Shown here piece after piece: positions 1,339-39,954 of a stretch of DNA of 64,000 bases. The notes below the pieces were generated by a model. The model was not told the DNA's origin. It did no database searches and worked only from the letters and a program-made list of their open reading frames with translations. Source of the stretch: Patescibacteria group bacterium (GTDB lineage Bacteria > Patescibacteriota > Patescibacteriia > Patescibacteriales > JBAZCA01); contig JBAZUF010000004.1 in the NCBI GenBank assembly GCA_041661505.1, positions 4,861 through 68,860 of the forward strand, in the 5' to 3' direction. Position numbers and translations under genes: made by a program. The first letter of the stretch is position 1; every line of letters starts with the position of its first letter.

Positions 1339-2946
1339 ATGGCTAAAGAAAAATACATCCAATTAAACGACGTCTGCCTTCGGGAATCGGCGCAGGTTTC
1401 CGGCGGCGCTATGAGCCCCAAGGATCAGCTTACTTATGTAAGATACCTTTTGGAAGGCGGAATCGACCGGATCGAAATCGGCTTTCCGGGCAGTTCTCCA
1501 GTGCAGTTAGAAAATTCAAAAAGGATCGTCGGTTTCGTAGACAAGAACGCGAAGGTTAAGCGGCCGCTTTTAGGCGGACTCGCGCGGGCGAAAAAAGAAG
1601 ACATTGACGCGATCCGCGAAGCCGGATGCGATTTATGCCATATCTATATTCCTTCTTCGGACGAATTCGTCAAAGCTATGTTTGCCGCGGAAAAATACGG
1701 AGATACGGTGGAGGGCAAGCAAAAGTGGACGATTGACCAGGCGGTAAGCATGGTGCGTTATGCGAAGAGTCTGGGATTTAAAAGCGTTGAATACTCGCCG
1801 GAAGACGCGGCCCGCACCAGCCGGGAATTTCTCTATAAGATGGTGGAGGCGGTAATTTCCGCCGGGGCGGACGTAGTTAATATTCCGGATACGACCGGAC
1901 TGCGCATCGGAAGCGAGTTCGGAGATTTAATCGCGGATATTGAAAAAAACGTGCCTAACCGGAAAAAAGCATTAATCTCGGTCCATTGCCATAACGATTC
2001 GGATCACTCAACCCATAACGCGCTAGAGGCGATTAGAAACGGAGCCGATATTGTCGAAGGGACTTTTTTCGGTCTGGGCGAGCGATCGGGGATGACCAAG
2101 TTTGAGGCGGTTTTAATGAATGTAAACACGCGCCAAGATCTGTTTAGCGGTTTTAAAATAGATTTTAAGCCGGAGCTTTGTGTTAAAATCGTAAACTTTA
2201 CCGCTAACGCCCTGGGCATGTCAGTCCCCAGGCATTGGGTTGTGGCCGGCTCGCAAAATTCTATTTGCTCATCCGGCACCCATCAGGCGATTGAAGCCCG
2301 GGCCAAAGAGCGGGGGATGGAAAGCGCTTATTACAGCTGGCATCCGGAAATTTACGGCCATTCTAAAGTTACCACGGTAATCAACCAGTCATCTGGACGG
2401 GAGGGCCTCCGAAAAAGGCTTGAGGAACTGGGCTATATGCTTGGCTCTGAGGAGATGCAGAAAGTTTACGAGCAGTCGATTAAAATCTCCGAAGCTATGG
2501 CCGGAAAGCCTTTAGAAGACCGGGAACTGGCGGCTATCGTGCATGAAACAATTGACGTTATTCCTTTCCCGATAAAAGTAAAAAGATGCCAGGCCATGGG
2601 CGGAAAAGGAACTATCCCGACCGCTACTGTTGTTATTGAGGTAGAGGGTAAAGAAGGAATCGCGGCCGAAATCGGCGTCGGACCTTATGACGCTATCATG
2701 CATTCCGTCGTCCGGGCGGCGGAAAATTTTTATCCTAAATTAAAAGAAGTGAATATTGTTTTGGACGCCTGGAATCCGACTTCGGTAACTTCCGGGTCGG
2801 ACGCTTTAGCCGATGTTTACGCGCGGATACGGATTAATGATGATATAAACCACGCCTTTTCCGGCCGGGCCGTCCATATCGATACCAACCAGGCTTCGGC
2901 CCAGGCTTTTGCCAACTGTTTAAGCTGGTATTTGGCCTCGCTTTAA
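1339..2946 (+). CDS. leuA: 2-isopropylmalate synthase
   Basis: DRE-TIM metallolyase motifs (HCHNDSDHSTHNAL, GLGERSG) plus a C-terminal LeuA-type regulatory domain (GVGPYDAIMHSV). leuCD and leuB follow. Confidence 0.9.
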   Translation: MAKEKYIQLNDVCLRESAQVSGGAMSPKDQLTYVRYLLEGGIDRIEIGFPGSSPVQLENSKRIVGFVDKNAKVKRPLLGGLARAKKEDIDAIREAGCDLCHIYIPSSDEFVKAMFAAEKYGDTVEGKQKWTIDQAVSMVRYAKSLGFKSVEYSPEDAARTSREFLYKMVEAVISAGADVVNIPDTTGLRIGSEFGDLIADIEKNVPNRKKALISVHCHNDSDHSTHNALEAIRNGADIVEGTFFGLGERSGMTKFEAVLMNVNTRQDLFSGFKIDFKPELCVKIVNFTANALGMSVPRHWVVAGSQNSICSSGTHQAIEARAKERGMESAYYSWHPEIYGHSKVTTVINQSSGREGLRKRLEELGYMLGSEEMQKVYEQSIKISEAMAGKPLEDRELAAIVHETIDVIPFPIKVKRCQAMGGKGTIPTATVVIEVEGKEGIAAEIGVGPYDAIMHSVVRAAENFYPKLKEVNIVLDAWNPTSVTSGSDALADVYARIRINDDINHAFSGRAVHIDTNQASAQAFANCLSWYLASL

Positions 2947-2964: not shown

Positions 2965-4899
2965 ATGCCGAAGACGGCTTTCCAAAAAATAATTGACGCT
3001 CACGTTAAGAAATTTTTTCCTGACCAAAGGATGGTTTTAGATTTGGATTGGGTATGGGGGCATGAAATTACAACGCCGAACGCCATTTTGGATATGAAAT
3101 CCCGGGGGATAAATTCGGTTTTTAACCCTAACCGGATAAAGCTGATGATTGACCATGTCAATCCGCCAAAAGATACGGCGTCGGCGATTCAGTCAAAAAT
3201 TGTCCGGGACTGGGCGCGGGAAATGGATATTGAATTTTTAGAAGTCGGCCGCAACGGCATTTGCCACGCGGTCATTCCGGAAAAGGGCTGGATCCGGCCG
3301 GGACAAATCGGCATCATGGGCGATTCGCATACCTGCACGCACGGGGCTTTTGGCGCGTTTACCGCCGGCGTCGGGACAACCGACCTGGAGAACGCGCTAA
3401 TTACTGGGCTTTGGATTTGCCCGCCGCAAAAAGTAGTTCGCGTAAATTTTAACGGCGAGCTGGCGAAAAATGTTTTTGCCAAAGATTTGATTTTGGTTTT
3501 GATAAAAAAAATCGGGGTCAAAGGCGCGGCTAACGCGGTACTGGAATTCGGCGGAACTGCCGTGAAAAATATGAGCATGGAAGGGCGGATGACAATCGCC
3601 AACATGGCAATTGAAGCCGGTGCTAGCTCGGGCATGATGATGACGGATGAAAAAACCATCGAATACCTTTGGCCGACTTTGAAGGATGAATTTAAAAATA
3701 GAAAAGAAGCTCTGGCTGATCTGTCAAAATGGAATAGTGACGCGGATGCGAAATATGATCAGGTAATTGATATGGATGCCAGTAAACTGGCGCCGGTAAT
3801 AACTGATAATTTTTCCCCGGAAGACGTCCATTCGGTTAAAGAATTGGCTGGCAAAAAAATTGACCAAGTCTATATCGGCTCCTGCACCAACGGAAGGATT
3901 TCCGATTTAAGGATTGCCGCCGGCGTGTTTAAAGCTATGGGAAAACCGGTACATAAAAATATCCGGTGCATCATCGTGCCGGCTACGGCGCATATTTACG
4001 GCCAGGCTTTGCGCGAAGGGTTAATCGAAATATTTTTACAAGCCGGCTGTTTAATAAGCGCTCCGACTTGCGGCGCTTGCCTGGGGATGTCAAATGGAGT
4101 AATCGCGCCGGGCGAAGTATGCGTTTCAACAACCAACCGCAATTTTCCCGGACGGATGGGAAAGGGCGGGATGGTCCATCTGGCTTCGCCAATAACCGCG
4201 GCTTTAGCGGCAGTGGATGGAAAAATTACCGAGCTGGGTATTGAACTTGGAGAAAAAGTTGAAAAATTTGTTTCTTCCATAATTAAAGACGGGACGCCTA
4301 TGTCTTTAACCGGCTGGAAAGAAAAAAAGGCCGGGCCAGTTGATTATAAAGCCATGCTGAAAAACATAGGCAATGGGGAAGAAAAAGATTTTTCCGGGCC
4401 AGCCGGCTATGCGCCGATAAAAAATATTGATACCGACCAAATTATACCGGCGCGATATTTAACCGAAACCGATAAAGCTGAACTGGGAAGGCATTGCCTG
4501 GAAGACGCTCAATTCAGCGCCGAAGAGAGAAAAATAATTTTAGAATCGCAAATTTTAGTAGCCGATGAAAATTTCGGCTGCGGTTCAAGCCGCGAGCACG
4601 CCCCTTGGGCCTTGGAAGCTAACGGCATAAGATGCGTTATTGCTCCGTCTTTCGCCCGGATTTTTTATAACAACATGTTTAATAATGGATTGCTCTGCAT
4701 TGAACTCCAGCCGGAAGAAATAAGTGAATTGATGGAGGTAAAGCCTAATAGCCTGGAAATTGACTGGAAGAATGGCGTTGCCAAAACGGAAAAAGGGAAG
4801 CAATACAAATTCAGCCTGTCTGATTATCAAAAAGAATTAATTAAAAATGGCGGCAGTGCCGGCTATATGCTAAAGCTGGCCGCGGATATTAATATTTAA
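2965..4899 (+). CDS. leuCD: 3-isopropylmalate dehydratase, fused large and small subunits
   Basis: 644 aa. The N-terminal aconitase-type LeuC part has GDSHTCTHGAFG and GSCTNGRISD. The C-terminal LeuD swivel part has IDTDQIIPARYL and GCGSSREHAPWAL. Confidence 0.9.
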   Translation: MPKTAFQKIIDAHVKKFFPDQRMVLDLDWVWGHEITTPNAILDMKSRGINSVFNPNRIKLMIDHVNPPKDTASAIQSKIVRDWAREMDIEFLEVGRNGICHAVIPEKGWIRPGQIGIMGDSHTCTHGAFGAFTAGVGTTDLENALITGLWICPPQKVVRVNFNGELAKNVFAKDLILVLIKKIGVKGAANAVLEFGGTAVKNMSMEGRMTIANMAIEAGASSGMMMTDEKTIEYLWPTLKDEFKNRKEALADLSKWNSDADAKYDQVIDMDASKLAPVITDNFSPEDVHSVKELAGKKIDQVYIGSCTNGRISDLRIAAGVFKAMGKPVHKNIRCIIVPATAHIYGQALREGLIEIFLQAGCLISAPTCGACLGMSNGVIAPGEVCVSTTNRNFPGRMGKGGMVHLASPITAALAAVDGKITELGIELGEKVEKFVSSIIKDGTPMSLTGWKEKKAGPVDYKAMLKNIGNGEEKDFSGPAGYAPIKNIDTDQIIPARYLTETDKAELGRHCLEDAQFSAEERKIILESQILVADENFGCGSSREHAPWALEANGIRCVIAPSFARIFYNNMFNNGLLCIELQPEEISELMEVKPNSLEIDWKNGVAKTEKGKQYKFSLSDYQKELIKNGGSAGYMLKLAADINI

Positions 4900-4900
4900 T

Positions 4901-6058
4901 ATGGCTAAAAAAATAATCGCATTAGTCGAAGGCGACGGGGCTGGCCCGGAAATGATGCATGAAGCCTGCCGGATAGCGGTTGCCGCCGCCAAAATGGACG
5001 GGATAGAAATTGAATTCGAAAAAACCCCGATGGGCTGGAATGCTTATCATGAACATGGCGATACCTTGCCCGAAGAATCCTTTGAAAAAGCGGTTCGCAT
5101 CGGAACTATTTTTTTCGGCGGCGTCGGCGATCCGAAGTTTGATAAAACCATAGGAATGGAAAAACCGGAAATGAGGCCGGAAGCCCGGGCGCTTTTGGCT
5201 TTAAGGAAAGAAATGGGTCTGTTTTTAAATTTTCGGCCGATTATTTATTATAAATCGCTTGAAGCGCTCGCTAACGTAAAACCGGAAACTATTCCCGAAG
5301 AAGGAGTAAAACAAATCTGGATCCGTTATTTATTGGAAGACAGCTATTTTGGCAATGCCGATTTAATGGACGAGGTGCCGGAAAAGGTGCGGCAGAAAAT
5401 CGGGCTAAAGATGAAAAAAGATGTTTGCCTGGAGGATGAGATAGTCTGCGACCTGGCTTATTATAAAAAATCCACGCTGGAAAAATATATCCGCGCCTGC
5501 TTTGCCTCTGCCCGCGAAATGAAACTGCCCTTAATTTCGATAGACAAGGCCAATGTCATGGCCCGCTATGATTTTTGGCGGAAAATCGCGACGAAAATCG
5601 GCGCCGAAGAATTCCCGGACGTGGAGCTTATCCATCAACTGGTCGACTCGGCCAATTCCATGCTTTTTACGCCGGCCAAATTGCATGGAGTTATCGCCTG
5701 CGGGAACGAGCATGGCGATATCTTATCGGACGGCGCGGCCGCGGCTTTGGGCAGTATGGGGCTCATGTGTTCTTCGGCAGTTAATCCTGATACGGGCCAG
5801 GCAATGTTCGAGTCCGGGGCCGGAACCGCTCCGACTTTAGCCGGCCAGGATAAGGCAAATCCTTTAGGCCGGATTTTAACCGGAGCGTTGATGCTTCGGC
5901 ACATTGGAGCAAAAAAAGGCGCAACTGCCATCGAAGAAGCTGTTAACCGCGCATTGTCAGAAGGCTGGCGCACCGGCGATTTGTTTACAAAAAAAGATGA
6001 CCCGGCCAAACTTTTAGGTACGCAAGCGATGGGGAAAAAAGTTTTGTCATATTTATAG
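4901..6058 (+). CDS. leuB: 3-isopropylmalate dehydrogenase
   Basis: Isocitrate/isopropylmalate dehydrogenase family (GDGAGPEMM, NEHGDILSDGAAA). Operon context supports the call. Confidence 0.9.
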   Translation: MAKKIIALVEGDGAGPEMMHEACRIAVAAAKMDGIEIEFEKTPMGWNAYHEHGDTLPEESFEKAVRIGTIFFGGVGDPKFDKTIGMEKPEMRPEARALLALRKEMGLFLNFRPIIYYKSLEALANVKPETIPEEGVKQIWIRYLLEDSYFGNADLMDEVPEKVRQKIGLKMKKDVCLEDEIVCDLAYYKKSTLEKYIRACFASAREMKLPLISIDKANVMARYDFWRKIATKIGAEEFPDVELIHQLVDSANSMLFTPAKLHGVIACGNEHGDILSDGAAAALGSMGLMCSSAVNPDTGQAMFESGAGTAPTLAGQDKANPLGRILTGALMLRHIGAKKGATAIEEAVNRALSEGWRTGDLFTKKDDPAKLLGTQAMGKKVLSYL

Positions 6059-6102: not shown

Positions 6103-6131
6103 TTGACAGCGGTAAAGGAATAAAATATAAT
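6103..6131 (+). promoter_or_regulatory. consensus promoter TTGACA-17-TATAAT
   Basis: Both hexamers are perfect with a 17-nt spacer. The predicted start is about 6138 and the mini-ORF ATG is at 6140. Confidence 0.7.
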
Positions 6132-6139
6132 ATTTATAT

Positions 6140-6238
6140 ATGCTTAACCTGGCAAGAAAAATCGTATTGATTGTCGTAGAGGTAGTAGTCATGGTAATGA
6201 CTCCTTTTCGCGTTTGCCGGGTTAGAGTAAGAGCATAA
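6140..6238 (+). CDS. Val/Ile/Leu-rich leader peptide MLNLARKIVLIVVEVVVMVMTPFRVCRVRVRA
   Basis: 32 codons with 10 Val, 2 Ile and 3 Leu, including the run IVLIVVEVVVMV. The mRNA is nearly leaderless, and the 3' part of the ORF forms an antiterminator arm. Confidence 0.7.
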   Translation: MLNLARKIVLIVVEVVVMVMTPFRVCRVRVRA

Positions 6239-6287
6239 AAAGAAAAAAAGCTAAGATGAACCCCCGGCAAACAAGCCGGGTTTTTTT
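6212..6287 (+). terminator. attenuator: antiterminator 6212-6221:6263-6272; terminator cccggc-aaacaa-gccggg plus T7
   Basis: gtttgccggg is the exact reverse complement of cccggcaaac. The terminator stem is 6263-6268/6275-6280, followed by ttttttt at 6281-6287. Confidence 0.7.
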
Positions 6288-6670
6288 GTAAGATGTTCTT
6301 TTGTAGACGGGTGGGCTAATTATGATAACGCGCCTGAAATGGCAAGCGAGCTAATCGTTTTTCGCTTCGGGCGCGTTAAGTAATTGTTTCCTTCGCGGCA
6401 GTCCTGGCGTGCGGCAAGCGACAAAATCGCTTCCAGCAGACGGCGACAGAATCGCCTCTCAATTTTAGCACATAGGGCAAAAACCCGAACAGGCATTTTC
6501 CTGCCAGGCTCTTTCCCGCAAGGCTTTTTTACAAGAGCTAACGCACCCGTAACAATATGGTGTTTCCAAAAGTTTGGAAGCATCCGGGGGGTCTATAGAT
6601 TGCAGATTGATTTATAGATCCCCCTCCTTCCTTTTTCATAATTTAATTAAATATTTAGCCAATTTTAGTC

Positions 6671-6699
6671 TTGACATATGGGCCAAAAAGCACTACTAT
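6671..6699 (+). promoter_or_regulatory. promoter TTGACA-17-TACTAT
   Basis: Perfect -35 hexamer, 17-nt spacer, and a 4/6 match at -10. The predicted start coincides with the ATG at 6706. Confidence 0.5.
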
Positions 6700-6705
6700 T
6701 ATCAT

Positions 6706-6759
6706 ATGATAACCAGACCGCAAAATATTTTATTGGTAAACTTGATTCTACCCACCTAG
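6706..6759 (+). CDS. second branched-chain leader peptide MITRPQNILLVNLILPT
   Basis: 17 codons, 8 of them Ile/Leu/Val. The spacing from the promoter implies a leaderless mRNA. It lies 110 nt upstream of the first ilv-cluster gene. Confidence 0.45.
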   Translation: MITRPQNILLVNLILPT

Positions 6760-6795
6760 ATGGCGGTTTTCCAGCATGGATAAAAGATAAAAACT

Positions 6796-6819
6796 GCCAC
6801 ACTAAAAGGTGGCTTTTTT
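6796..6819 (+). terminator. weak hairpin gccac/gtggc followed by T6
   Basis: 5-bp stem, 8-nt loop, and tttttt at 6814-6819. The upstream cccacc (6751-6756, the end of the mini-ORF) can pair with ggtgg (6808-6812). Confidence 0.4.
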
Positions 6820-6869
6820 AATATAGCGGGCCGTTTAAAAAGCCCGGGGAGAGAAAAAAACATAAAGAT

Positions 6870-8720
6870 ATGACCATCCAAAACGGGACAGTAAAATTTT
6901 ATAAGTTAAAATGCGTTCGATGCGGCGCTGTTTGGGATGAAAAAGAGACTTCGTCCGCCTGCTTAAAATGCGGCGACGCGCTGGAAGCCCACTACGACTG
7001 GGAGTTTATCAAATGCCGTTTAAACCAGTTCAATCTGAAATATACGCCGATTTCCGCCACCAAATATTTGAATTTTTACCCAATTTTGGATTTAAAAAAA
7101 TTAGTTACTTTAAATGAAGGCGGGACTCCCCTTCGAAAATCAAAAAAAATCGCCAAACGGCTGGGACTGGAAAACCTTTATTTTAAGGATGAAACTTCCA
7201 ACCCGACCGGCGGTTTTAAAGACCGGGGGACTATGGTGGAAATAACTAAGGCGCTTGAGATGGGAGCCAAAGCGGTGGTTGTGGCTTCCACCGGAAATAT
7301 GGCCGCTTCGGTTTCGGCTTATGCCAGTCAGGCGGGTATTCCGGCTTACATCGTCGTCCCCGAAGGAACGCCGATTGGAAAACTCTCCCAAACTTTGGCT
7401 TATGGCGCCCGGGTCATCCAAGTCCGCGCCACTTATTCGGAATGCGCGAAACTGGCCGAAGAAATAGCGAAAAAATACGGATTTTATTTGGCCGGTGATT
7501 ATGTTTTTCGGGGCGAGGGGCAGAAATCGCAAGGCTATGAAATTGTCGAACAATTATCCTGGCGCGCGCCGGACTATCTAATCGCGCCGATCGGCTGCGG
7601 GACCAATATCGCGGCGATTTATAAAGGCATAAAAGAATTTCACGATCTGGGCTTTATCGATAAATTGCCGAGAGTCATCGGCGTCCAGCCCGAAGGCGCC
7701 AATACCGTAGTCGACGCCTATAACCGCCGGTCAACGAAAATAAATCCAATTGCCAAGCCCAAAACAATCGCTTCGGCCGTCGCCGTCGGCTACCCTTTAG
7801 ACGGTTTAAAAGTTCTGCGCGATATTAAAGAATCAAAAGGCATGGCGATTAGCGTGAATGACGAAGAGATCTTAAACGCGGAAAAAGAACTGGCTTACGA
7901 GGAATCGATTTTTGTCGAACCGTCGGCCGCGCTTTCGCTGGCCGCCTTGAAAAAAATGTGTTCGAAAAAAATCGTCGGGAAAAATGAAACAGTGGTCTGC
8001 GTTTTGACCGGAAACGGGCTAAAAGATCCGGTAACCATGCTGAAAATTCTCCCATCGCCTCCGTCAATCGAGCCGAAACTCTCGGAAGTCGACCATTATT
8101 TGAAAATGAAATTATATAACATCCAGGCCACGGTCGAAAAAGATAAAGCGGAAATCCTCTTTAGCAAAGCGCCCGGTTTAGCCCAAATAAAAAAAACGGT
8201 GCAAAAGAAGTTCGGCCTGGACTTAACTAAAATTTATCTGGACGCTATCCACGCTGAAGTGAAAGAATTTTTTAATAAAGAAGAAAAAATGAGAAAATCG
8301 GATTTGCAGCACATCATTGAAGCTAATTTAAAAACCGATCCCAAGGCGGTAAAAATAATCAAAGTCGAAGATTTTAAAGTGAGCACTTCAAAAGCCGCTA
8401 AGGCCGAAGCCCAGGTTTGCGTAAAAATCGCCGAGAAACGCATCTGCCGGGTGAATTCTTTCGGCGTGGGGCCGGTGGACGCGATTATGAGAGCGATCCG
8501 CGAAGTCATTAAAAAAGAAAAACTGCCCAATTACTGGCTCATTAATTTTGACGTGAAAATCGACAGCAAAGGAACCGACGCGACGGTGGAAGTTACTATG
8601 GAATTAAAAGACGAAGCCGATAACAAAGTTATCTCAACCGCCGCTTCGCCGGACATTATTGTCGCTTCGATTGAAGCGTTTGAACGGGGATATAATATTC
8701 TCTATAATAAGAAAAAATAA
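6870..8720 (+). CDS. thrC: threonine synthase fused to a C-terminal LeuA-type (LeuA_dimer-like) regulatory domain
   Basis: N-terminal Zn ribbon (CVRCG...CLKCG). The PLP-lysine motif NPTGGFKDRG and ASTGNMAAS are typical of ThrC. The C-terminal ~200 aa (FGVGPVDAIMRAIREV...ASPDIIVASIEAFERGYNIL) resemble the regulatory domains of the LeuA and CimA proteins in this window. Confidence 0.8.
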   Translation: MTIQNGTVKFYKLKCVRCGAVWDEKETSSACLKCGDALEAHYDWEFIKCRLNQFNLKYTPISATKYLNFYPILDLKKLVTLNEGGTPLRKSKKIAKRLGLENLYFKDETSNPTGGFKDRGTMVEITKALEMGAKAVVVASTGNMAASVSAYASQAGIPAYIVVPEGTPIGKLSQTLAYGARVIQVRATYSECAKLAEEIAKKYGFYLAGDYVFRGEGQKSQGYEIVEQLSWRAPDYLIAPIGCGTNIAAIYKGIKEFHDLGFIDKLPRVIGVQPEGANTVVDAYNRRSTKINPIAKPKTIASAVAVGYPLDGLKVLRDIKESKGMAISVNDEEILNAEKELAYEESIFVEPSAALSLAALKKMCSKKIVGKNETVVCVLTGNGLKDPVTMLKILPSPPSIEPKLSEVDHYLKMKLYNIQATVEKDKAEILFSKAPGLAQIKKTVQKKFGLDLTKIYLDAIHAEVKEFFNKEEKMRKSDLQHIIEANLKTDPKAVKIIKVEDFKVSTSKAAKAEAQVCVKIAEKRICRVNSFGVGPVDAIMRAIREVIKKEKLPNYWLINFDVKIDSKGTDATVEVTMELKDEADNKVISTAASPDIIVASIEAFERGYNILYNKKK

Positions 8721-8721
8721 T

Positions 8722-9624
8722 ATGGAGACCACAAAATACATCTGGCAAAACGGAAAATTGGTAAATTGGGAAGACGCTAAAATCCATGTCTTAAGCCACT
8801 CGCTCCATTACGGCTCGGGGGTTTTTGAAGGCATCCGGGTTTATGAGACGAAAAAGGGCCCGGCGATTTTTCGCCTCCCAGAGCACGTGGACCGGTTTTT
8901 TTACTCGGCTAACGCGATGAAAATGAAAATGCCCTGGACTAAGGATGAGTTTAAGGCCGCCATAATTGAAACCGTGAAAAAAAACGATTTGAAATCGGGC
9001 TATATCCGGCCCCTGGCTTTTTACGGCTACGGCGAGCTTAGGATCAGCCCGCTAAAATGCCCGGTCGAAGCGATTATCGCCGCCTGGCCCTGGGGAAAAT
9101 ATTTATCGGCCGACCCGATTAAGGTAAAAGTTCCGGACTACATAAGAATTCATCCTAAGTCATCAATAGCAGACGCGAAAATTTGCGGCCATTATGTCAA
9201 TTCAATCCTTTCCTTTTTAGAGGTGGAAGCGGCCGGCTACCACGAAGCGCTTTTACTCGACTTTGAAGGAAACATCGCCGAAGGTCCGGGAGAAAATTTT
9301 TTTCTTGTGTCCGGCGGAAAATTGGCGACCCCAAAACTGGGAAATATTTTAGCGGGAATTACCCGGCAGTCGATTATTGAGCTTGCGGGCGATTTGGGAT
9401 ACGCGGTGGAAGAAAAAACAATTACGCTTGACGCCGCGATAGCGGCGGATGAATGCTTTTTTACCGGAACGGCGGCTGAAGTAACGCCGATCGGATCTAT
9501 TAATGATTGCCTGATTGCCGGCGGAGCCTTTGGCCCGATTACCCGGCGTTTTAACGACGAGTTTATGAAAATCGTTTCCGGGGAAAATGAAAAATACGAA
9601 AAATGGTTAACATACGCGAATTAA
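8722..9624 (+). CDS. ilvE: branched-chain amino acid aminotransferase
   Basis: Class IV aminotransferase (LHYGSGVFEGIRVYE, FTGTAAEVTPI). The start was chosen at METTKYIW, 1 nt after the thrC stop. Confidence 0.9.
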   Translation: METTKYIWQNGKLVNWEDAKIHVLSHSLHYGSGVFEGIRVYETKKGPAIFRLPEHVDRFFYSANAMKMKMPWTKDEFKAAIIETVKKNDLKSGYIRPLAFYGYGELRISPLKCPVEAIIAAWPWGKYLSADPIKVKVPDYIRIHPKSSIADAKICGHYVNSILSFLEVEAAGYHEALLLDFEGNIAEGPGENFFLVSGGKLATPKLGNILAGITRQSIIELAGDLGYAVEEKTITLDAAIAADECFFTGTAAEVTPIGSINDCLIAGGAFGPITRRFNDEFMKIVSGENEKYEKWLTYAN

Positions 9625-9641
9625 TTTTGAAACTGCCTCTT

Positions 9642-11261
9642 ATGAAACTGCCATCAGAAAAATTAAAAAAGGGAATTGCCACTATGCCGCACCGGGCGCT
9701 CTTGCGGGCTGACGGCTTGCGCGGCGCGGATTTTAAAAAGCCTTTTATCGGCGTGGCTGATTCTTATAACGATATTATTCCCGGGCACATTCATCTGCGC
9801 GAGCTGTCAGAAGAGGTGAAGCGGGGAATCCGCGATGCCGGCGGCGTGCCGTTTGAGTGGGGCGTACCGGGGGTTTGCGACGGCATTGCCATGCACGTCG
9901 AAATGCGCCTGTCACTGCCTAGCCGGGAGCATATCGCCGACAATATAGAAATCATGGTGCTGTCTCATAGCCTGGACGGCTGGGTTGGCGTAACTAACTG
10001 CGACAAAATCACGCCCGGAATGCTAATGGCGGCCGGGAGGCTTAATCTTCCGGCGGCAATTTTAACCGGCGGGCCGATGAAGGCGGGAATCGTGAATGGA
10101 AAAAAAATGGACGTGATTTCCGATTTTGAGGCGGTAGGGCAAATTGAAGCCGGAAAATTATCCAAAAAAGAGGCTTTGAAAATTGAATGCGAATCCTGCC
10201 CGGGCGCCGGGAGCTGCGCCGGGCTTTTTACCGCTAATTCTATGGCGGCCATGACCGAAGTTTTAGGCATGTCAGTAACGGGCTCTGCCACAACGCTCGC
10301 CCTGGATCCGAAAAAAAAGAAACAAGCTTATGAAACCGGCCGGCGCATTGTGGAACTGGTAAAAAGGAACATTAAACCAAAAGATATAATGACCAAAAAC
10401 GCGTTTTTAAACGCAATAAGAGTGGACATGGCTATCGGCGGCTCGACCAATACGGCCCTGCATTTGCCGGCCATTGCCAAAGAATGCGGAATTAAGCTGG
10501 AGCTCGGGCTATTTGACCAGGCCTCCCGGCAAACTCCCAATATTTGCCATATTCGGCCGGCCGGGCCTTATGTTATGGAAGAACTGGATCAGGCCGGAGG
10601 CATCCCGGCGGTGTTAAATCGCCTGAAAAAATACTTAAAGCCAGCCATAACTATTAATAAAAAGAATATTTTAAAAATTGCCGAAGAAGGAAGGGTGCGG
10701 AATGAAAAAGTAATAAGGCCGCTTTCGGACCCGTTCTATAAAGAAGGCGGCATCGCGGTTTTAAAAGGGAATTTAGCGCGGACTTCGGTAGTAAAACAGA
10801 CCGCGGTCGAACCGGAGATGCTGAAAATTACCGGGCCGGCCAAAGTTTTTTCCGGCGAGCAGGCAATTTTAAAAGCCGTGGCCCGGAAAAAAATTAAAGA
10901 CGGCGACATTATCGTAATTAATTTTATGGGTCCGGCCGGCGCGCCGGGCATGCCGGAAATGCTTACGCCCACGGCCGCCATATCCGGCGCCGGATTAAAG
11001 TGCGCGCTGATTACCGACGGCCGTTTTTCCGGCGGAACTCGGGGGGCGGCTATCGGCCATATTGAACCCGAAGCTTTTCATGGCGGAGTAATCGGCATTA
11101 TAAAAGACGGCGACCTGATTGAGATTGATATTCCCAAAAGAAAATTAAATGTGGCGCTAAGCCGCGCGGAAATTAAAAAGAGGAAGAAGAATTTAAAAAT
11201 TCCTAAAAGAAAAATGACCAAGATGCTGGAAAAATACCGAAAGGATAACAAAAAAGCCTGA
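9642..11261 (+). CDS. ilvD: dihydroxy-acid dehydratase
   Basis: IlvD/Edd family (CDKITPGMLMAA, CPGAGSCAGLFTANSM, ITDGRFSGGT). The start at MKLPSEKL avoids overlap with ilvE; 9603 is an alternative. Confidence 0.9.
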   Translation: MKLPSEKLKKGIATMPHRALLRADGLRGADFKKPFIGVADSYNDIIPGHIHLRELSEEVKRGIRDAGGVPFEWGVPGVCDGIAMHVEMRLSLPSREHIADNIEIMVLSHSLDGWVGVTNCDKITPGMLMAAGRLNLPAAILTGGPMKAGIVNGKKMDVISDFEAVGQIEAGKLSKKEALKIECESCPGAGSCAGLFTANSMAAMTEVLGMSVTGSATTLALDPKKKKQAYETGRRIVELVKRNIKPKDIMTKNAFLNAIRVDMAIGGSTNTALHLPAIAKECGIKLELGLFDQASRQTPNICHIRPAGPYVMEELDQAGGIPAVLNRLKKYLKPAITINKKNILKIAEEGRVRNEKVIRPLSDPFYKEGGIAVLKGNLARTSVVKQTAVEPEMLKITGPAKVFSGEQAILKAVARKKIKDGDIIVINFMGPAGAPGMPEMLTPTAAISGAGLKCALITDGRFSGGTRGAAIGHIEPEAFHGGVIGIIKDGDLIEIDIPKRKLNVALSRAEIKKRKKNLKIPKRKMTKMLEKYRKDNKKA

Positions 11262-11297: not shown

Positions 11298-13007
11298 ATG
11301 ATCGGAGCTGACGTATTAATAAAATCATTACTGGAAGAGGGAGTCGAGGTAATCTTCGGCTATCCGGGAGGGGTAACCATACCTTTGCATGACCGGCTGG
11401 CTTTTTATCCGAAAATAAGGCACATCCTTCCAAGAAACGAGCAGGGCGCGGCTATGGCGGCTGATGCTTATTTCCGCGTTACCGGCAAGCCGGGAGTCTG
11501 CCTTTCGACCTCCGGACCGGGCGCGACCAATTTAATTTCCGGCATCGCCAACGCTTATATGGACTCAATCGGCGTGGTGGCCATCACCTGCCAAGTTTCC
11601 ACCAAAATTTACGGCACGGACGCTTTTCAGGAAATAAAAATGACCGAGCTTACTAAAGCTATTACCAAGAAGAATTATTTTGTTAAAGACGTAAAAGACC
11701 TGCCGAAAATAATTAAAGAAGCTTTTTACCTCGCCCGCTCGGGGCGCCCCCGGCCGGTGCATATTGATTTGCCGGTGGACGTTATTAAAGCCGAAGTGAA
11801 GGAATTTTCTTATCCCCGGGACAAGGACGCGGAAGCTTTATCCGGACGGGATTATAAAGTAAGCCGGGAAACGGAAAAAGAAATTGAAAAGGCAGTTAAA
11901 TTAATCCATGAAGCGAAAAAGCCGATTGTTATCGGCGGCCATGGTATAATTTTGTCGGGCGGATCAGAAGAGTTTAAAGAATTTATAGAAGCCAATGAAC
12001 TGCCGTTTGTTACGACGCTTTTGGGAATAAGCGTTTTGCCGGATAAGCATCCTTTAAATTTCGGCATGGCCGGAATGCATGGCATGGCTTACGCCAATTT
12101 GGCGGTGCATAGCGCTGATCTTATTATCGCCCTGGGAACCAGGTTTTCCGACCGGATTACCGGGAATCTTGAGCATTACGCCAAGCGGGCTAAAGTAATC
12201 CACTTGGATATTGACGCGAGAGAAATCGGAAAAAATGTTAAGGTGGACGTTCCGCTTATAGGCGACGCCAAAAGCATATTAAGGCTAATGAACAAAAAAT
12301 TGGCCGGATATAAAAGAGAGCGCAAAAGCCGGCGCTGGGTCGATCAAATCTGCACCTTAGAAGAAAGGACCAGCCTTGATAAAATTAAAACTGAAGCCAA
12401 GCTGAAAAGAACCGGGCATATTTTTGCCTTTGAAGTGATTGAAGAAATTTCTAAACAAGCGGCCAAAAATGCAGTCGTCGTTTCGGATGTCGGGCAAAAC
12501 CAGATGTGGACGGCGCATTACTTTGACTATACTTATCCCGGCCAATTTTTGTCTTCCGGCGGCTTGGGCTGTATGGGCTACAGCCTGCCGGCGGCGGTAG
12601 GCGCGCAAACCGGCAAGCCCGGCGCCCAGGTTTGGTCAATTATGGGCGACGGGGGACTGCAGATGAATATTCAGGAGCTGGGGACGATAATGGAACAAAA
12701 ATTGCCGATAAAGATTATTGTTTTAAATAACGGGTTTTTGGGCATGGTGCGCCAATGGCAGGAATTGTTTTTTAAGAAAAATTATATGTCTACGCCGCTT
12801 TGCAATCCCGATTTTATCGAAGTCGCGAAAGCTTACGGCATCGAAGCATATAGGATTACCAAACTTGATCAGGTGGCGCCGATGATAAAGCGGGCGGCGG
12901 CGGGAAAAGAGTCGATTTTTCTTGAGTTTGCTATCGAGCCGGAGGCTAATGTTTTTCCCATGGTGCCGCCGGGGCAAGCTTTAAGAGATACGTTAATTTG
13001 TAAATAA
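11298..13007 (+). CDS. ilvB: acetolactate synthase large subunit
   Basis: ThDP enzyme (GYPGGVTIPLHD, GLGCMGYSLPAAVGA, GDGGLQMNIQEL). Confidence 0.9.
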   Translation: MIGADVLIKSLLEEGVEVIFGYPGGVTIPLHDRLAFYPKIRHILPRNEQGAAMAADAYFRVTGKPGVCLSTSGPGATNLISGIANAYMDSIGVVAITCQVSTKIYGTDAFQEIKMTELTKAITKKNYFVKDVKDLPKIIKEAFYLARSGRPRPVHIDLPVDVIKAEVKEFSYPRDKDAEALSGRDYKVSRETEKEIEKAVKLIHEAKKPIVIGGHGIILSGGSEEFKEFIEANELPFVTTLLGISVLPDKHPLNFGMAGMHGMAYANLAVHSADLIIALGTRFSDRITGNLEHYAKRAKVIHLDIDAREIGKNVKVDVPLIGDAKSILRLMNKKLAGYKRERKSRRWVDQICTLEERTSLDKIKTEAKLKRTGHIFAFEVIEEISKQAAKNAVVVSDVGQNQMWTAHYFDYTYPGQFLSSGGLGCMGYSLPAAVGAQTGKPGAQVWSIMGDGGLQMNIQELGTIMEQKLPIKIIVLNNGFLGMVRQWQELFFKKNYMSTPLCNPDFIEVAKAYGIEAYRITKLDQVAPMIKRAAAGKESIFLEFAIEPEANVFPMVPPGQALRDTLICK

Positions 13008-13107
13008 TTATTAATTTAAGTTATTGTTTTTAATTTTTCATTTTGCGAGCATTTAAAAAATTAATTACAATTAATAAACATTAAAATATTCTAATAAAAA
13101 AAATACT

Positions 13108-14157
13108 ATGGCAAAAATTGATTTTGGAGGAGTAGTAGAAGAGGTGACGACCAGGGAAGAATTTCCTTTGGAAAAGGCGCGGGAAGTGCTGGCTAATGAA
13201 GTGGTGGCCGTTATCGGCTACGGCGTCCAGGGGCCGGGGCAGGCTTTAAATTTGAAAGACAACGGCATTAAAGTAATTGTCGGACAAAGAAAGCCCGGCG
13301 CTTCCTGGGACAAGGCTTTAGCGGATGGTTTTAAACCGGGAGAAGATTTGTTTGAAATTGAAGAAGCCTTGGAAAAGGGAACGATTATTTGCTATCTTCT
13401 TTCCGACGCCGGGCAAATCACTCTTTGGCCGACTGTTAAAAAACATTTGACCAAAGGCAAGGCCCTTTATTTTTCCCACGGCTTTGGAATAACCTACAAA
13501 GACCAAACCAACATCATTCCGCCGGCTGACGTGGATGTTATTTTAGTCGCCCCAAAAGGCTCGGGGACTTCGCTCCGCCGCTTGTTTGTCGCCGGCAAAG
13601 GGCTTAACTCAAGCTACGCGATTTTCCAGGACGCTACCGGCCGGGCGGCCGATCGGGTTAGGGCTTTGGGCATTGCCGTAGGATCGGGATTTTTATTTCC
13701 CACTACGTTTGAAAAAGAAGTCTATAGCGACTTAACCGGGGAGCGCGGAGTTTTAATGGGCGCTTTGGCCGGCATTATGGAAGCCCAGTACAACCTGTTG
13801 CGGAAGATGGGGCACTCGCCGTCCGAAGCCTTTAATGAAACGGTTGAAGAAGCGACCCAGAGCCTAATCCCTTTAGTGGCGGAAAACGGGATGGATTGGA
13901 TGTATGCTAATTGCTCTACGACTGCCCAGCGCGGAGCCCTGGACTGGCGCCACGAATTTCGAAAGGCGGTGGAACCGGTTTTTGAAAAATTATACGGCCG
14001 GGTAAAAAACGGCGAGGAGTGCCAGGTGGTTTTAAAAGCCAATAGCGATCCGGATTATCGGGCAAAATTAAATAAAGAGCTGGAAGATATGCGCAATTCG
14101 GAATTATGGCAGGCCGGAGCGGCGGTTCGCGCCTTGCGCCCGGAGAGGCAAAAGTAA
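13108..14157 (+). CDS. ilvC: ketol-acid reductoisomerase
   Basis: Class I KARI (VIGYGVQGPGQALNLKDNG, SHGFGI, ERGVLMG). Confidence 0.95.
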   Translation: MAKIDFGGVVEEVTTREEFPLEKAREVLANEVVAVIGYGVQGPGQALNLKDNGIKVIVGQRKPGASWDKALADGFKPGEDLFEIEEALEKGTIICYLLSDAGQITLWPTVKKHLTKGKALYFSHGFGITYKDQTNIIPPADVDVILVAPKGSGTSLRRLFVAGKGLNSSYAIFQDATGRAADRVRALGIAVGSGFLFPTTFEKEVYSDLTGERGVLMGALAGIMEAQYNLLRKMGHSPSEAFNETVEEATQSLIPLVAENGMDWMYANCSTTAQRGALDWRHEFRKAVEPVFEKLYGRVKNGEECQVVLKANSDPDYRAKLNKELEDMRNSELWQAGAAVRALRPERQK

Positions 14158-14236
14158 TTTTTGGCCGGCCTTTAGCGAAAGCGGCAGGCGAGCTTTTTTG
14201 AAGCCTATTTTGTTTTTATAAAATAAATATATTGCT

Positions 14237-14611
14237 ATGAAACAAGTAATCAGTTCCGGCAACGCGCCAAAAGCCGTTGGGCCGTATTCGCAAGGGATAA
14301 AATCCGGAGAATTTTTATTTCTTTCGGGGCAAATTCCTCTAAGGCCGGACGGAAGCCTTGTGGAAGGCGATATCGAAGCGCAGGCCGCGCAAGTTTTAGA
14401 GAACATAAAAGCTCTTTTGTCCGAGGCCGGAATGGGCTTTCAAAACGTGGTAAAGTCCACCATGTTCTTAGCCGACCTGGCCGATTTCCAGAAAGCTAAC
14501 GAAGTTTACGCCAAGTATTTTACCGAGCCTTATCCGGCCCGGGTTACAATTCAAGTTGCCGGGATTCCTAAAGGCGCAAGGATTGAAATTGAAGTAACGG
14601 CCAAGGCCTAG
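14237..14611 (+). CDS. ridA: RidA/YjgF family enamine/imine deaminase
   Basis: APKAVGPYSQGIKSGEFLFLSGQIPL and a C-terminal RIEIEV motif. Confidence 0.85.
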   Translation: MKQVISSGNAPKAVGPYSQGIKSGEFLFLSGQIPLRPDGSLVEGDIEAQAAQVLENIKALLSEAGMGFQNVVKSTMFLADLADFQKANEVYAKYFTEPYPARVTIQVAGIPKGARIEIEVTAKA

Positions 14612-14652
14612 CCCGCCCAAAACCCGATTTTTGCGGAATAACCAAGCAATTT

Positions 14653-14678
14653 AGAGCCATCCTAAAAGGGGTGGCTCT
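14653..14678. terminator. hairpin agagcca/tggctct between the convergent genes ridA and trpA
   Basis: 7-bp stem with a 12-nt loop, flanked by AT-rich sequence. The T tracts are weak. Confidence 0.35.
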
Positions 14679-14698
14679 TATATTACTTATATTAAAGT

Positions 14699-15505: not shown

Positions 15506-15551
15506 ATAATAATGGATGCCGGAATTCTCTTTCGTGGAATTCCCGCCCGCC

Positions 15552-28070: not shown

Positions 28071-28139
28071 AAACGAAATAACCGAGCCCCGCCAGCTCGC
28101 TGGCAGGACAGGCAAAGGGCATAAAAATGCCTTAATATT

Positions 28140-29531: not shown

Positions 29532-29571
29532 AATTTATTTTTCCAAAAATTATTATTGGCGCGATTTAATC

Positions 29572-30582: not shown

Positions 30583-30631
30583 ATGCGAGGCGCCATTAAT
30601 TATGGCTTAATAAGGCAATCATGGAGCCTGG

Positions 30632-37081: not shown

Positions 37082-38656
37082 ATGCCAAAAGGAGTAAAGA
37101 TTTACGATACAACCTTGCGCGACGGGACCCAGGCGGAGAATTTCAGCCTGACGGTTTCCGATAAAATAAAGATCGCCTTAAAGCTTGATGATTTAGGCCT
37201 GCATTATATTGAAGGCGGCTGGCCGGGTTCTAACCCTAAGGACGCGGCTTTTTTTAATGAAATAAAAAAGCACGAATTGAAAAACGCGGTTATTGTTGCT
37301 TTTGGCTCGACTCATCATCCGGCGGTTTTAGCCGAAGATGACTTGAACCTGAAAGCCTTGGCCGATTCCGGCGCGAAAGCCGTAACAATTTTTGGCAAAG
37401 CCTGGACCGTGCAGGTAAAAGAAGCTTTGAATATCCCGCTGGAAAAAAATTTGGAAATAATTTTAGAAAGCTTAAGAATTTTGAGGCCGCGGGTTAAAGA
37501 GCTTTTTTTTGACGCCGAGCATTTTTTTGACGGTTATAAGGCGGATTCGGAATATGCTTTGGCGGTTTTATCTAGGGCCTTAGAAGGCGGGGCTGATTGT
37601 TTGGTGTTATGCGATACTAACGGCGGAAGCATGCCAAGCGATATCCGGCAAATTATCACTAAAGTCAAAGAAAGGTTTCCTGCGGCGGAATTAGGCATCC
37701 ATGCCCATAACGATTCCGAGCTGGCGGTAGCCAACACCATGACGGCGGTTAAGCTCGGAGCAGTCCAGGTTCAGGGAACGATTAACGGGATTGGCGAACG
37801 CTGCGGAAACGCGAATTTATGCTCAATAATTCCCAATCTGATTTTAAAAAAGGGTGTTATGTGCCTGCCGAAAGAAAATTTAAAAAAATTATCGGCCGCG
37901 AGCCGCTTTGTCAGCGAATTGGCGAATTTAAATCCTAACCGCTATCAGCCGTATGTCGGACAAAGCGCTTTTGCCCATAAGGGCGGAGTGCACATTAACG
38001 CCGCCTTGAAAAATCCGATGACTTATGAGCATATTGATCCGGCTTTGGTCGGGAACATCCGGCGCATTTTAGTTTCCGATCTTTCCGGCCGCTCGGCTAT
38101 AGCGAAAAAATTGGAAGACTTTGGCATTAATTTATCCAAGACTGATCCGGCGGCCTTGAAAATTTTAAATGAAGTAAAGGAATTGGAAAACCACGGCTAT
38201 CAGTTTGAAGCGGCCGAAGCCAGTTTTGAGCTTTTGGCCAGCCGCCTGCTTGGGAAAAACAAAAATTATTTCCAGTTGGTTGATTACCGGGTGACTGACT
38301 GCAAGGCCGGAGAAGGGGAGGCGCCGTCCATCGAGGCAACAGTAAGGATTAAAGTAAAAGATCGCGAAGAGCATAGCACGGCCAAAGGCGTCGGCCCGGT
38401 TGATGCCCTAAACAATGCTTTAAGAAAGTCTTTGGAAAAAATTTATCCCCAGCTAAACGGCATGAAGCTTACGGATTATAAGGTCCGGGTATTGCCGACG
38501 AATGACGGTACGGCGGCCCGGGTAAGGGTATTAATTGAATCCTGCGACGATAAAGACTACTGGGGCACGGTCGGGGTATCAGTTGATATATTAGAGGCAA
38601 GCTGGATGGCTTTAGTCGATAGTTTTAATTACAAATTGTATAAAGAAGAAAAATAA
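37082..38656 (+). CDS. cimA: (R)-citramalate synthase
   Basis: IYDTTLRDGTQAE, the YIEGGWPGSNPKD signature of the CimA branch, HAHNDSELAVANT, and a C-terminal regulatory domain GVGPVDALNNAL...VDILEASWMAL. Confidence 0.8.
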   Translation: MPKGVKIYDTTLRDGTQAENFSLTVSDKIKIALKLDDLGLHYIEGGWPGSNPKDAAFFNEIKKHELKNAVIVAFGSTHHPAVLAEDDLNLKALADSGAKAVTIFGKAWTVQVKEALNIPLEKNLEIILESLRILRPRVKELFFDAEHFFDGYKADSEYALAVLSRALEGGADCLVLCDTNGGSMPSDIRQIITKVKERFPAAELGIHAHNDSELAVANTMTAVKLGAVQVQGTINGIGERCGNANLCSIIPNLILKKGVMCLPKENLKKLSAASRFVSELANLNPNRYQPYVGQSAFAHKGGVHINAALKNPMTYEHIDPALVGNIRRILVSDLSGRSAIAKKLEDFGINLSKTDPAALKILNEVKELENHGYQFEAAEASFELLASRLLGKNKNYFQLVDYRVTDCKAGEGEAPSIEATVRIKVKDREEHSTAKGVGPVDALNNALRKSLEKIYPQLNGMKLTDYKVRVLPTNDGTAARVRVLIESCDDKDYWGTVGVSVDILEASWMALVDSFNYKLYKEEK

Positions 38657-39856: not shown

Positions 39857-39954
39857 TCCGCGTACCGGAGGTGTTTTCTAGAAGGACAAGCTTTGCCTTC
39901 AGGGAACGCCTCCGGTTCCTAATTCCTTATTTAGAATCAGATTTATATACCAGA

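Follow-up and report, generated by a model that had tools for sequence, protein, structure and literature searches.

What does an enzyme of the threonine synthase type do at the head of an operon for branched-chain amino acid synthesis? The question is raised by a 64,000-nucleotide stretch of a Patescibacteria contig (JBAZUF010000004.1), referred to here at its full length as the window. On its forward strand, the open reading frame (ORF) at 6870-8720 begins with ATG and encodes a protein of 616 amino acids (aa), in which a pyridoxal 5'-phosphate (PLP) domain of the threonine synthase (ThrC) type is fused to a C-terminal regulatory domain of the LeuA_dimer family. We tentatively propose, a little short of even confidence, that this fusion is an isoleucine-regulated, ThrC-derived deaminase making 2-oxobutanoate, and thus a functional analogue of the threonine deaminase IlvA, with threonine as its likeliest substrate. 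The wider proposal is that such proteins in Patescibacteria, DPANN archaea and Methylomirabilota would form a non-IlvA class of feedback-regulated 2-oxobutanoate-forming enzymes, with a ThrC origin, carboxylates in the place of the phosphate site and an isoleucine sensor of the CimA type; to us this appears evenly poised between right and wrong.

By family and by fold, the catalytic half belongs with ThrC. The protein is 100% identical to P0001, a recorded protein of a Patescibacteria metagenome-assembled genome, and the Pfam profiles of both halves, PALP and LeuA_dimer, match over the residues listed in Table 1. It carries the motif NPTGGFKDRG and four N-terminal Zn-ribbon cysteines, which are invariant or at least 90% conserved among 44 family members. 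When its N-terminal 390 aa are scanned with the NCBIfam models, both ThrC equivalogs are passed, NF006050 by a narrow margin (318.5 bits against a cutoff of 303) and TIGR00260 at 250.6 bits against 167. Canonical ThrCs reach 317-337 bits on TIGR00260, and the fusion clade lies about 70-110 bits lower. None of the IlvA and TdcB models of NCBIfam was passed (85-134 bits, cutoffs 320-800), and the best-scoring IlvA model, TIGR01127, gave 133.9 bits against 378.75. The ACT-like Thr_dehydrat_C domain is not found by Pfam at the C-terminus, where LeuA_dimer stands instead. The AlphaFold2 model (mean predicted local distance difference test, pLDDT, 82; predicted TM-score, pTM, 0.72) shows a ThrC-like body, poorly defined linkers at 386-394 and 415-426, then a helical subdomain, with helices at 437-487, and two beta-beta-beta-alpha units. 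Solved threonine synthases rank first in a Foldseek search of the model, with a target-normalised TM-score of 0.85, followed by serine racemases and dehydratases; the whole-model search is dominated by the catalytic domain and gives no independent reading of the regulatory (R) domain. The initial annotation described the first ~400 aa as a typical ThrC, which stands for the fold, the family, the Zn-ribbon and the lysine motif, but not for the active-site signature.

This signature was read from an alignment of 119 family members with four solved threonine synthases, and is given here in the numbering of Thermus thermophilus ThrC. The fusion family keeps the PLP lysine K61, the loop S84-x-G86-N87, and the residues R160, E162, G163 and K165. 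In 119/119 members T88 is replaced by M, N154 by G, S155 by D, V156 by Y, G190 by T and S248 by D; additionally, N188 is replaced by C or V in 116/119, and N157 is deleted. In the protein of the window the signature reads S140-T-G-N-M144, G209-D210-Y211-x-F213-R214, G242-C243-G244-T245-N246 and D311. The residues T88, N154, S155, N157, R160, N188 and S248 are conserved even in the distant ThrC of Arabidopsis, and T88, N154, S155, R160 and N188 are conserved in five solved ThrCs and in P0343, a ThrC encoded in a thr operon. These last five we take to be the ligands of the phosphate of O-phosphohomoserine in T. thermophilus ThrC, which later hold the freed phosphate ion, and only R160 among them is kept in the fusion family. 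Judged by its residues, the catalytic half is not a typical ThrC, as six residues that are invariant in proven class-I threonine synthases (T88, N154, S155, N157, N188 and S248) are replaced throughout the clade.

Deviation from the crystallised ThrCs alone proves little, because the ThrC-like superfamily is heterogeneous at active-site positions, with many subfamilies without known function, and because the nearest unfused relative in the genome collection, L009 ('STGNL/NIIRPYY'), also departs from them. A natural control is provided by the canonical relatives, which were recovered in a search seeded with an unfused Thermococcus member. These are Zn-ribbon proteins of 407-447 aa, about 43% identical to the catalytic part of the fusion, and as a group they carry STGNT, N-SINPYRLEGQKT, GNAGN and S248. 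P0343 is one such canonical Zn-ribbon ThrC of archaeal type (43% identity), with a Cys-rich N-terminus similar to that of the fusion, and is encoded in an operon of the order GHMP-kinase(thrB)-thrC-hom-ask. The worry that the signature is not diagnostic was dropped on this ground, since the closer unfused relatives are fully canonical and one lies in a thr operon. The Thermococcus-seeded set holds 34 sequences of the T/S type, all of them unfused, and 62 of the M/D type, with every fusion among the latter. All fused proteins and all unfused proteins linked to RidA carry the M/GDY/GT/D signature.

The phylogeny places the remodelled proteins together. In a neighbour-joining (distance) tree of 242 sequences, the M/D-type sequences (92/92) fall in one clade of 97 tips, the remaining five of which also carry M88, and the sister of this clade is the canonical ThrC clade that holds the four crystallised enzymes. 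The fused proteins lie mostly in a subclade of 68 tips (59/62), with nine unfused proteins nested inside. Given these nested proteins, and the unfused P0130 of locus L022, whose gene stands in the syntenic position that the fused gene takes in L015, either the regulatory module was gained or lost more than once, or some ORFs are truncated.

The C-terminal ~200 aa had been likened to the regulatory domains of LeuA and CimA, and this resemblance is confirmed. The LeuA_dimer profile (PF08502) matches residues 476-611 with E 2.7e-23 and 82.7 bits, well above the gathering score of 24.9, and the match spans profile positions 4-130 of 131; the same domain is precomputed for all fused homologs. In BLASTP, the C-terminal 200 aa align throughout with the stretch 329-524 of the window CimA (30% identity, E 3e-10), and both the linker subdomain and the R domain are covered. 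The window LeuA is matched more weakly (E 2e-4), and by this measure the fused module is closer to the CimA than to the LeuA of the window. Its only sequence match in the Protein Data Bank is 3F6G/3F6H (E 0.0067), which we take to be the isoleucine-binding regulatory domain of Leptospira citramalate synthase. In the GxGPxDA motif, G532, G534, V536 and A538 are invariant, and V533 and D537 at least 90% conserved, among the 44 family members. The beta-beta-beta-alpha unit is internally duplicated in the model (strands 497-532, helix 535-549, strands 555-593, helix 596-615). The PF08502 domain of CimA provides an allosteric response to L-isoleucine (PMC13381585), and by analogy with CimA we infer that the fused module would bind a branched-chain amino acid at a dimer interface, with inhibition as the outcome.

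The gene context points in the same direction. As had been noticed at the outset, the gene sits where ilvA usually does, heading ilvE-ilvD-ilvB-ilvC-ridA, and the window holds no ilvA: its only fold-type-II PLP enzymes are the fusion, TrpB and CysK, with no second ThrC. The second PALP gene, at 39871, was considered as a hidden ilvA and ruled out, being CysK/M. Neither thrB nor hom was found in the 64-kb window. Its cimA, which had been read as supplying the citramalate route to 2-oxobutanoate, encodes a genuine citramalate synthase by its TIGR00977 score (Table 1). Of eight related fused genome loci, seven (L001-L007) share with the window a fusion gene at the head of ilvE-ilvD-ilvB, and ilvC follows in these seven except in L004, whose sequence ends after ilvB. 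L004 also has a 4.7-kb insertion (11822-16517) between the fusion gene and ilvE and is otherwise syntenic. The ilv gene order of the window recurs in many metagenome loci; in a Gracilibacteria locus the gene heads ilvE-ilvB-ilvN, and in a DPANN archaeon the order is leuA-ilvB-ilvN-leuC-..-leuD-leuB-ridA-fusion-ilvC. Among the low-GC (<0.52) metagenome loci, 25 are informative, of which 19 have branched-chain amino acid genes, 6 have RidA and 22 have either. The corresponding counts for the high-GC loci, mostly NC10, are 2, 1 and 3 of 44 informative loci, and the context evidence rests on Patescibacteria and DPANN.

RidA, an enamine/imine deaminase family protein, is a recurrent partner. Its gene lies on the same strand and within ~230 bp in nine loci (L015, L020, L022, L024, L030, L041, L044, L072 and L093), sometimes upstream and sometimes downstream, beside fused and unfused members alike, and in six further cases (the window, L001, L003, L007, L026 and L056) it is the last gene of the operon that also holds the clade member. 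The RidA proteins that were tested are archetypal in 4/4 cases (TIGR00004, 138-165 bits against 106). The partners of a threonine pathway were sought with ThrB and Hom probes taken from the P0343 operon, in 105 sequences made up of the window, 24 loci and 80 metagenome loci. ThrB was found in 0/105 and Hom in 1/105 (L104), and no hidden thr genes were found in L008. The unfused members in Thermococcales and other archaea stand alone.

The spacer of 811 bp between leuB and the fusion gene contains a putative attenuator directly ahead of the latter (Table 1), with an RNA fold z of -2.1. Leader ORFs rich in Ile, Val and Leu are also present upstream of the orthologous gene in L001, L002, L003, L007 and L013, for example MRPTITNIIIIIIIIATQVVG in L007 and MNIVNLIIISIIIAT in L002. 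The leader ORFs of the clade are not Thr-rich; the leader of the thr operon in E. coli is threonine-rich. A T-box or riboswitch was rejected, and a leader-peptide attenuator preferred, because an Rfam scan of the region upstream of the fusion gene gave no match. A second promoter/leader/terminator unit lies just after leuB, at 6103-6290, and consists of a perfect sigma-70-like promoter (TTGACA-17-TATAAT, 6103-6131), a 32-codon Val/Ile/Leu-rich ORF (6140-6238, MLNLARKIVLIVVEVVVMVMTPF...) and a GC-rich hairpin with a T-run (6263-6280). The spacer thus seems to hold two attenuator-like units in tandem, and between the two leaders there is a hairpin with a 17-bp stem (GGGGGGTCTATAGATT...AATCTATAGATCCCCC) at 6586-6624.

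Its place in the operon and its leader of the isoleucine type single the gene out as an isoleucine-specific entry step, and the chemistry of ThrC suggests how it could serve as one. The ThrC reaction passes through a PLP-aminocrotonate, and the bound phosphate ion directs the addition of water that yields threonine. Without phosphate, T. thermophilus ThrC reportedly forms only 2-ketobutyrate. A ThrC scaffold that has lost the phosphate site would by default give 2-oxobutanoate, with either threonine (by reversal of the final ThrC step) or a compound of the homoserine type as its substrate. In Microcystis aeruginosa, ThrC deaminates threonine to 2-ketobutyrate (PMC12172450), and a passage of the same source also cites threonine deamination for the ThrCs of T. 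thermophilus and B. subtilis.

On the reading that we favour, a duplicate of ThrC would have changed function and become the committed enzyme of isoleucine synthesis. Its PLP domain would form PLP-aminocrotonate, most likely from L-threonine, and 2-aminocrotonate would be released instead of water being added, with the new aspartates D210 and D311 substituting for the catalytic phosphate ion of ThrC. The 2-aminocrotonate would then tautomerise and be hydrolysed to 2-oxobutanoate and ammonia, sped by the co-encoded RidA; as the released enamine/imine is a RidA substrate, the recurrent pairing with ridA would be explained. The 2-oxobutanoate would feed the downstream IlvB, IlvC, IlvD and IlvE. 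The C-terminal CimA-like module would bind isoleucine and shut the enzyme down, and transcription would be controlled as well, through the leader peptide with its many Ile, Val and Leu residues. The initial annotation had left a choice between feedback control of threonine synthesis and a modified activity. The modified activity is better supported, by the six replaced residues and by a context of ilv genes and RidA instead of thrB and hom, and the control of threonine synthesis less so.

Several points weigh against this proposal. The ThrC equivalogs of NCBIfam still score above their cutoffs for the fusion. The role of T88, N154, S155, R160 and N188 as a phosphate site is presumed, as reportedly seen in T. 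thermophilus ThrC (Omi et al. 2003; Murakawa et al. 2011), and the sole internal check on this numbering is that all five fall on invariant polar positions of the alignment. The bootstrap value of the M/D clade is moderate (29/60, on a subsample). RidA also protects other PLP enzymes, such as IlvE, and its presence in operons for branched-chain amino acids is suggestive, not diagnostic. In 41/44 informative high-GC/Methylomirabilota loci the gene is alone among neighbours that by eye look like housekeeping genes, and the context is silent there. In L104, with the operon leuA-leuC-leuD-leuB-fusion-hom, the hom gene overlaps the stop codon of the fusion by 4 bp, an arrangement that suits a substrate derived from homoserine no less than it suits threonine. 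Finally, the CimA of the window already gives 2-oxobutanoate, so that another source is not strictly required; both routes to 2-oxobutanoate are present in Geobacter sulfurreducens (PMC12131731).

The alternative that survives best, unlikely though we judge it, is a true threonine synthase with a LeuA_dimer domain that adjusts threonine output in response to a branched-chain amino acid; its place in an ilv operon would reflect the role of threonine as the precursor of isoleucine. The passed equivalogs, the closest fold, the retained PLP lysine, carboxylate loop and R160, the translational coupling of hom to the fusion in L104, and the name threonine synthase in every database all speak for it. 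It would also follow if Methylomirabilota, which are free-living autotrophs and presumably prototrophic, carry no other thrC. Allostery in a ThrC has a precedent in plants, where the enzyme is activated by S-adenosylmethionine (SAM), as cited in PMC13381585. However, the six residues that are invariant in class I from bacteria to plants are replaced in the clade, two of them by Asp, which should disfavour a dianionic phosphate, whereas P0343, the nearest relative in a real thr operon, keeps all six. The deficit on TIGR00260 relative to canonical ThrC and the absence of an adjacent thrB from every sequence probed, with RidA often adjacent, also argue against it. Moreover, if Ile or Leu inhibited the sole source of threonine, the cell would be starved of it, and such control makes little regulatory sense where CimA supplies 2-oxobutanoate.

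A second alternative, which we consider quite improbable, is that 2-oxobutanoate is formed by gamma-elimination from homoserine or an activated homoserine, bypassing thrB, thrC and ilvA. The chemistry retained from ThrC is a gamma-elimination followed by aminocrotonate formation, and the new invariant Asp residues at the former phosphate site could protonate the gamma-hydroxyl leaving group. The overlap of hom with the fusion stop codon in L104 agrees with this route, as does the presence of ask and asd in the window with no thrB found there, and the linkage to RidA fits it equally well. Mammalian THNSL2, a ThrC homolog, is said to degrade O-phosphohomoserine to 2-ketobutyrate. On the other side stand the single hom adjacency in ~100 loci and the lack of hom in the window; we know of no fold-type-II homoserine dehydratase, and O-phosphohomoserine as the substrate would predict a retained phosphate site. 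If the substrate were homoserine, there may even be a new three-step route from aspartate semialdehyde to 2-oxobutanoate. Least probable of all is another fold-type-II PLP reaction (serine dehydration to pyruvate, racemisation/epimerisation or beta-replacement) with a purely regulatory link to isoleucine. In its favour, ThrC-like proteins vary widely at these active-site positions and form many subfamilies without a known function, no branched-chain amino acid genes accompany the solitary unfused members in Thermococcales and other archaea, and the structures ranked next after the ThrCs are serine racemases and dehydratases. Against it, an isoleucine entry step is indicated by the lead position before ilvEDBC, by leaders rich in Ile, by a sensor of the CimA type and by RidA, and no other Ile-specific function is missing from these operons.

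The fusion can be compared with the known systems that come closest to it. Class-I ThrCs (EC 4.2.3.1; T. thermophilus 1UIM/1V7C, M. tuberculosis 2D1F, B. subtilis 6CGQ, A. aeolicus 2ZSJ and A. thaliana 1E5X) have a fold like that of the fusion (TM-score 0.85, 37-40% identity) and share with it the PLP-lysine motif NPTGxFKDRG, the S-T-G-N loop, R160, E162, G163 and K165. They lack the whole set of changes (T88M, N154G, S155D, V156Y, the N157 deletion, N188C/V, G190T and S248D), whereas the fusion has an extra module of 200 aa, and its genomic neighbours are ilv genes and ridA instead of thrB, hom and ask. With IlvA (EC 4.3.1.19), the fusion shares a fold-type-II PLP domain joined to a C-terminal amino acid sensor, the position in the ilv operon, the partnership with RidA and, as proposed, the product 2-oxobutanoate made via 2-aminocrotonate. 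It is not an ortholog of IlvA, however, as its catalytic domain is derived from ThrC and its sensor is LeuA_dimer and not the ACT-like Thr_dehydrat_C. The R domain of CimA and LeuA resembles the fused module in the Pfam match, the alignment over linker and R domain, and the GxGPxDA motif, but there it is carried by an HMGL-like TIM-barrel synthase and here by a PLP enzyme. The ThrC of Microcystis aeruginosa and mammalian THNSL2 are likewise ThrC scaffolds that yield 2-ketobutyrate, from threonine or O-phosphohomoserine. Both are without LeuA_dimer, and the Microcystis enzyme still makes threonine, whereas the fusion clade represents a fixed remodelling and not promiscuity. The SAM-activated ThrC of plants is also a ThrC-family enzyme under the allosteric control of the end product of a competing branch, but it uses an N-terminal extension, binds SAM at the dimer interface and has canonical active-site residues.

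The fused architecture is widespread: its clusters number in the hundreds and come from Patescibacteria, DPANN archaea and Methylomirabilota (NC10). In the first homolog search, both domains were present in all but one of the best 120 clusters, down to ~50% identity, and all named clusters among these 120 were called 'threonine synthase'. An exhaustive search over 1.84 billion representatives gave ~13 fused clusters at the 50% identity level. The fused proteins of Patescibacteria are labelled Parcubacteria, Peregrinibacteria, Gracilibacteria, Peribacteria, Altimarinota and Gottesmanbacteria, and others come from DPANN archaea. In the metagenome scan, high-GC loci make up more than half of 80 fused loci. 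The high-GC representative L082 belongs to Methylomirabilota, and its close homologs are found in Ca. Methylomirabilis oxyfera (on a 2.75-Mb contig), M. limnetica and M. lanthanidiphila. A family specific to the candidate phyla radiation (CPR) was rejected, as the metagenome scan and a later homolog search gave a large Methylomirabilota branch.

The possibility raised by the initial annotation, that the architecture is already common and characterised, holds in its first part; no characterisation was found in the literature. Public annotation already shows the two domains together, so the architecture as such is not new. Searches of the literature on the fusion, on ThrC-like dehydratases and on the thr and ilv genes of Methylomirabilis found no description or test of the fusion; the matches were off topic, including an M. 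marburgensis paper on heterologous ilvA. What appears to be unreported is the distinct clade with its remodelled site, its linkage to branched-chain amino acid genes and RidA and not to genes of threonine synthesis, and its plausible role as a replacement of IlvA. Among the unfused members of the clade, that of L019 (Thermococcus sp., SNUL01000003.1) lies at 8001-9170, beside thymidine kinase and a type III RuBisCO, and only some Thermococcales carry one (T. onnurineus, T. siculi, T. thioreducens and Palaeococcus pacificus). This pattern suggests a patchy distribution and possibly a catabolic role.

Table 1. Coordinates in the window of the fusion gene, its domains, its leader and the associated genes.
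Feature	Position	Strand	Basis
Coding sequence of the fusion: Zn-ribbon, ThrC-like PLP domain, helical linker subdomain, LeuA_dimer	6870..8720	+	Pfam, NCBIfam, identity to P0001, AlphaFold2
N-terminal Zn-ribbon, C15, C18, C31, C34	6906..6980	+	CxxC...CxxC pattern
Fold-type-II PLP catalytic domain, residues 79-381	7104..8012	+	PALP (Pfam) E 1.3e-78; Foldseek
PLP lysine K117	7218-7220	+	Aligns with K61 of T. thermophilus ThrC
Flexible linker and helical subdomain, ~residues 395-475	8052..8294	+	Homologous to the CimA linker subdomain
LeuA_dimer (PF08502) regulatory domain, residues 476-611, motif G532-V-G-P-V-D-A538	8295..8702	+	Pfam 82.7 bits
Putative attenuator ahead of the fusion gene	6671..6821	+	Promoter-like site, leader ORF, terminator-like hairpin
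Promoter-like site	6671-6699	+	
17-codon leader ORF (MITRPQNILLVNLILPT), Ile/Val/Leu-rich	6706-6759	+	
Terminator-like hairpin, then T-run	6796-6813	+	
leuA-like	1339-2946	+	NCBIfam
Fused leuCD	2965-4899	+	NCBIfam
leuB	4901-6058	+	NCBIfam
ilvE	8722-9624	+	NCBIfam equivalog above cutoff
ilvD	9603-11261	+	NCBIfam equivalog above cutoff
ilvB	11298-13007	+	NCBIfam equivalog above cutoff
ilvC	13108-14157	+	NCBIfam equivalog above cutoff
ridA (enamine/imine deaminase family), last gene of the cluster	14237..14611	+	PF01042; TIGR00004 164.6 bits vs 106
cimA, closest relative of the fused module in the window, second 2-oxobutanoate route	37082..38656	+	TIGR00977 743 bits vs 450

The neighbouring genes have features of their own. 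The leuCD fusion encodes 644 aa, with the large-subunit model matching residues 4-423 and the small-subunit model residues 484-637; in the DPANN locus L024, leuC and leuD are separate, with two CN_hydrolase genes between them. The LeuA-like synthase at 1339-2946 scores under every LeuA equivalog cutoff (best 336 bits against 532), whereas the operon-leading synthases of L024 and L104 are clear LeuA proteins (660-680 bits against 598.7); the substrate specificity of the LeuA-like synthase may be unusual. The gap between ilvB and ilvC (13008-13107) is only 100 bp, so the operon of the window has no ilvN, the gene for the valine-sensing small subunit of acetolactate synthase, which the related loci L013, L024, L056 and L062 carry.

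In the wider window, ~43 kb (1339-44264) hold biosynthesis genes for Leu, Ile/Val, Trp, shikimate and Phe/Tyr, together with argB, cimA, cysK and serA/serC/serB. On the reverse strand at 26982-31420, an aspartate kinase and an aspartate-semialdehyde dehydrogenase lie in the aromatic cluster, beside a DeoC-like gene and a PF01959 dehydroquinate synthase, and the cluster presumably corresponds to the aspartate-semialdehyde-dependent (archaeal-type) route to dehydroquinate. The segment 54001-58000 has a G+C content of 0.34-0.40, against ~0.45-0.48 elsewhere, a reversed GC skew and no NCBIfam match among the genes scanned there, and may be an acquired island. The dense region of amino acid biosynthesis at 1339-44264 is unusual for Patescibacteria, which are generally described as without most amino acid synthesis; in Ca. 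Peribacter genomes, most of it is absent (PMC4736985).

If the proposed function is right, the fusion would be a non-orthologous replacement of IlvA, a textbook case of allostery, that combines another PLP scaffold with another sensor, and an example of modular evolution of feedback regulation, in which one sensor module is common to two alternative entry enzymes of one pathway. It would also be a natural experiment on 'product-assisted catalysis' in ThrC, where removal of the phosphate site leaves the default product, 2-oxobutanoate. Should the protein be a true ThrC instead, it would be the first bacterial ThrC with an appended sensor of branched-chain amino acids and an unorthodox phosphate site. 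With the deaminase function, hundreds of genomes with a 'threonine synthase' and without ilvA would be misannotated, and their isoleucine pathways would be complete after all. The gap-filling of the threonine and isoleucine pathways would both be altered, and the affected annotations would include those of Ca. Methylomirabilis oxyfera and of numerous CPR and DPANN organisms, whose biosynthetic abilities are a matter of debate.

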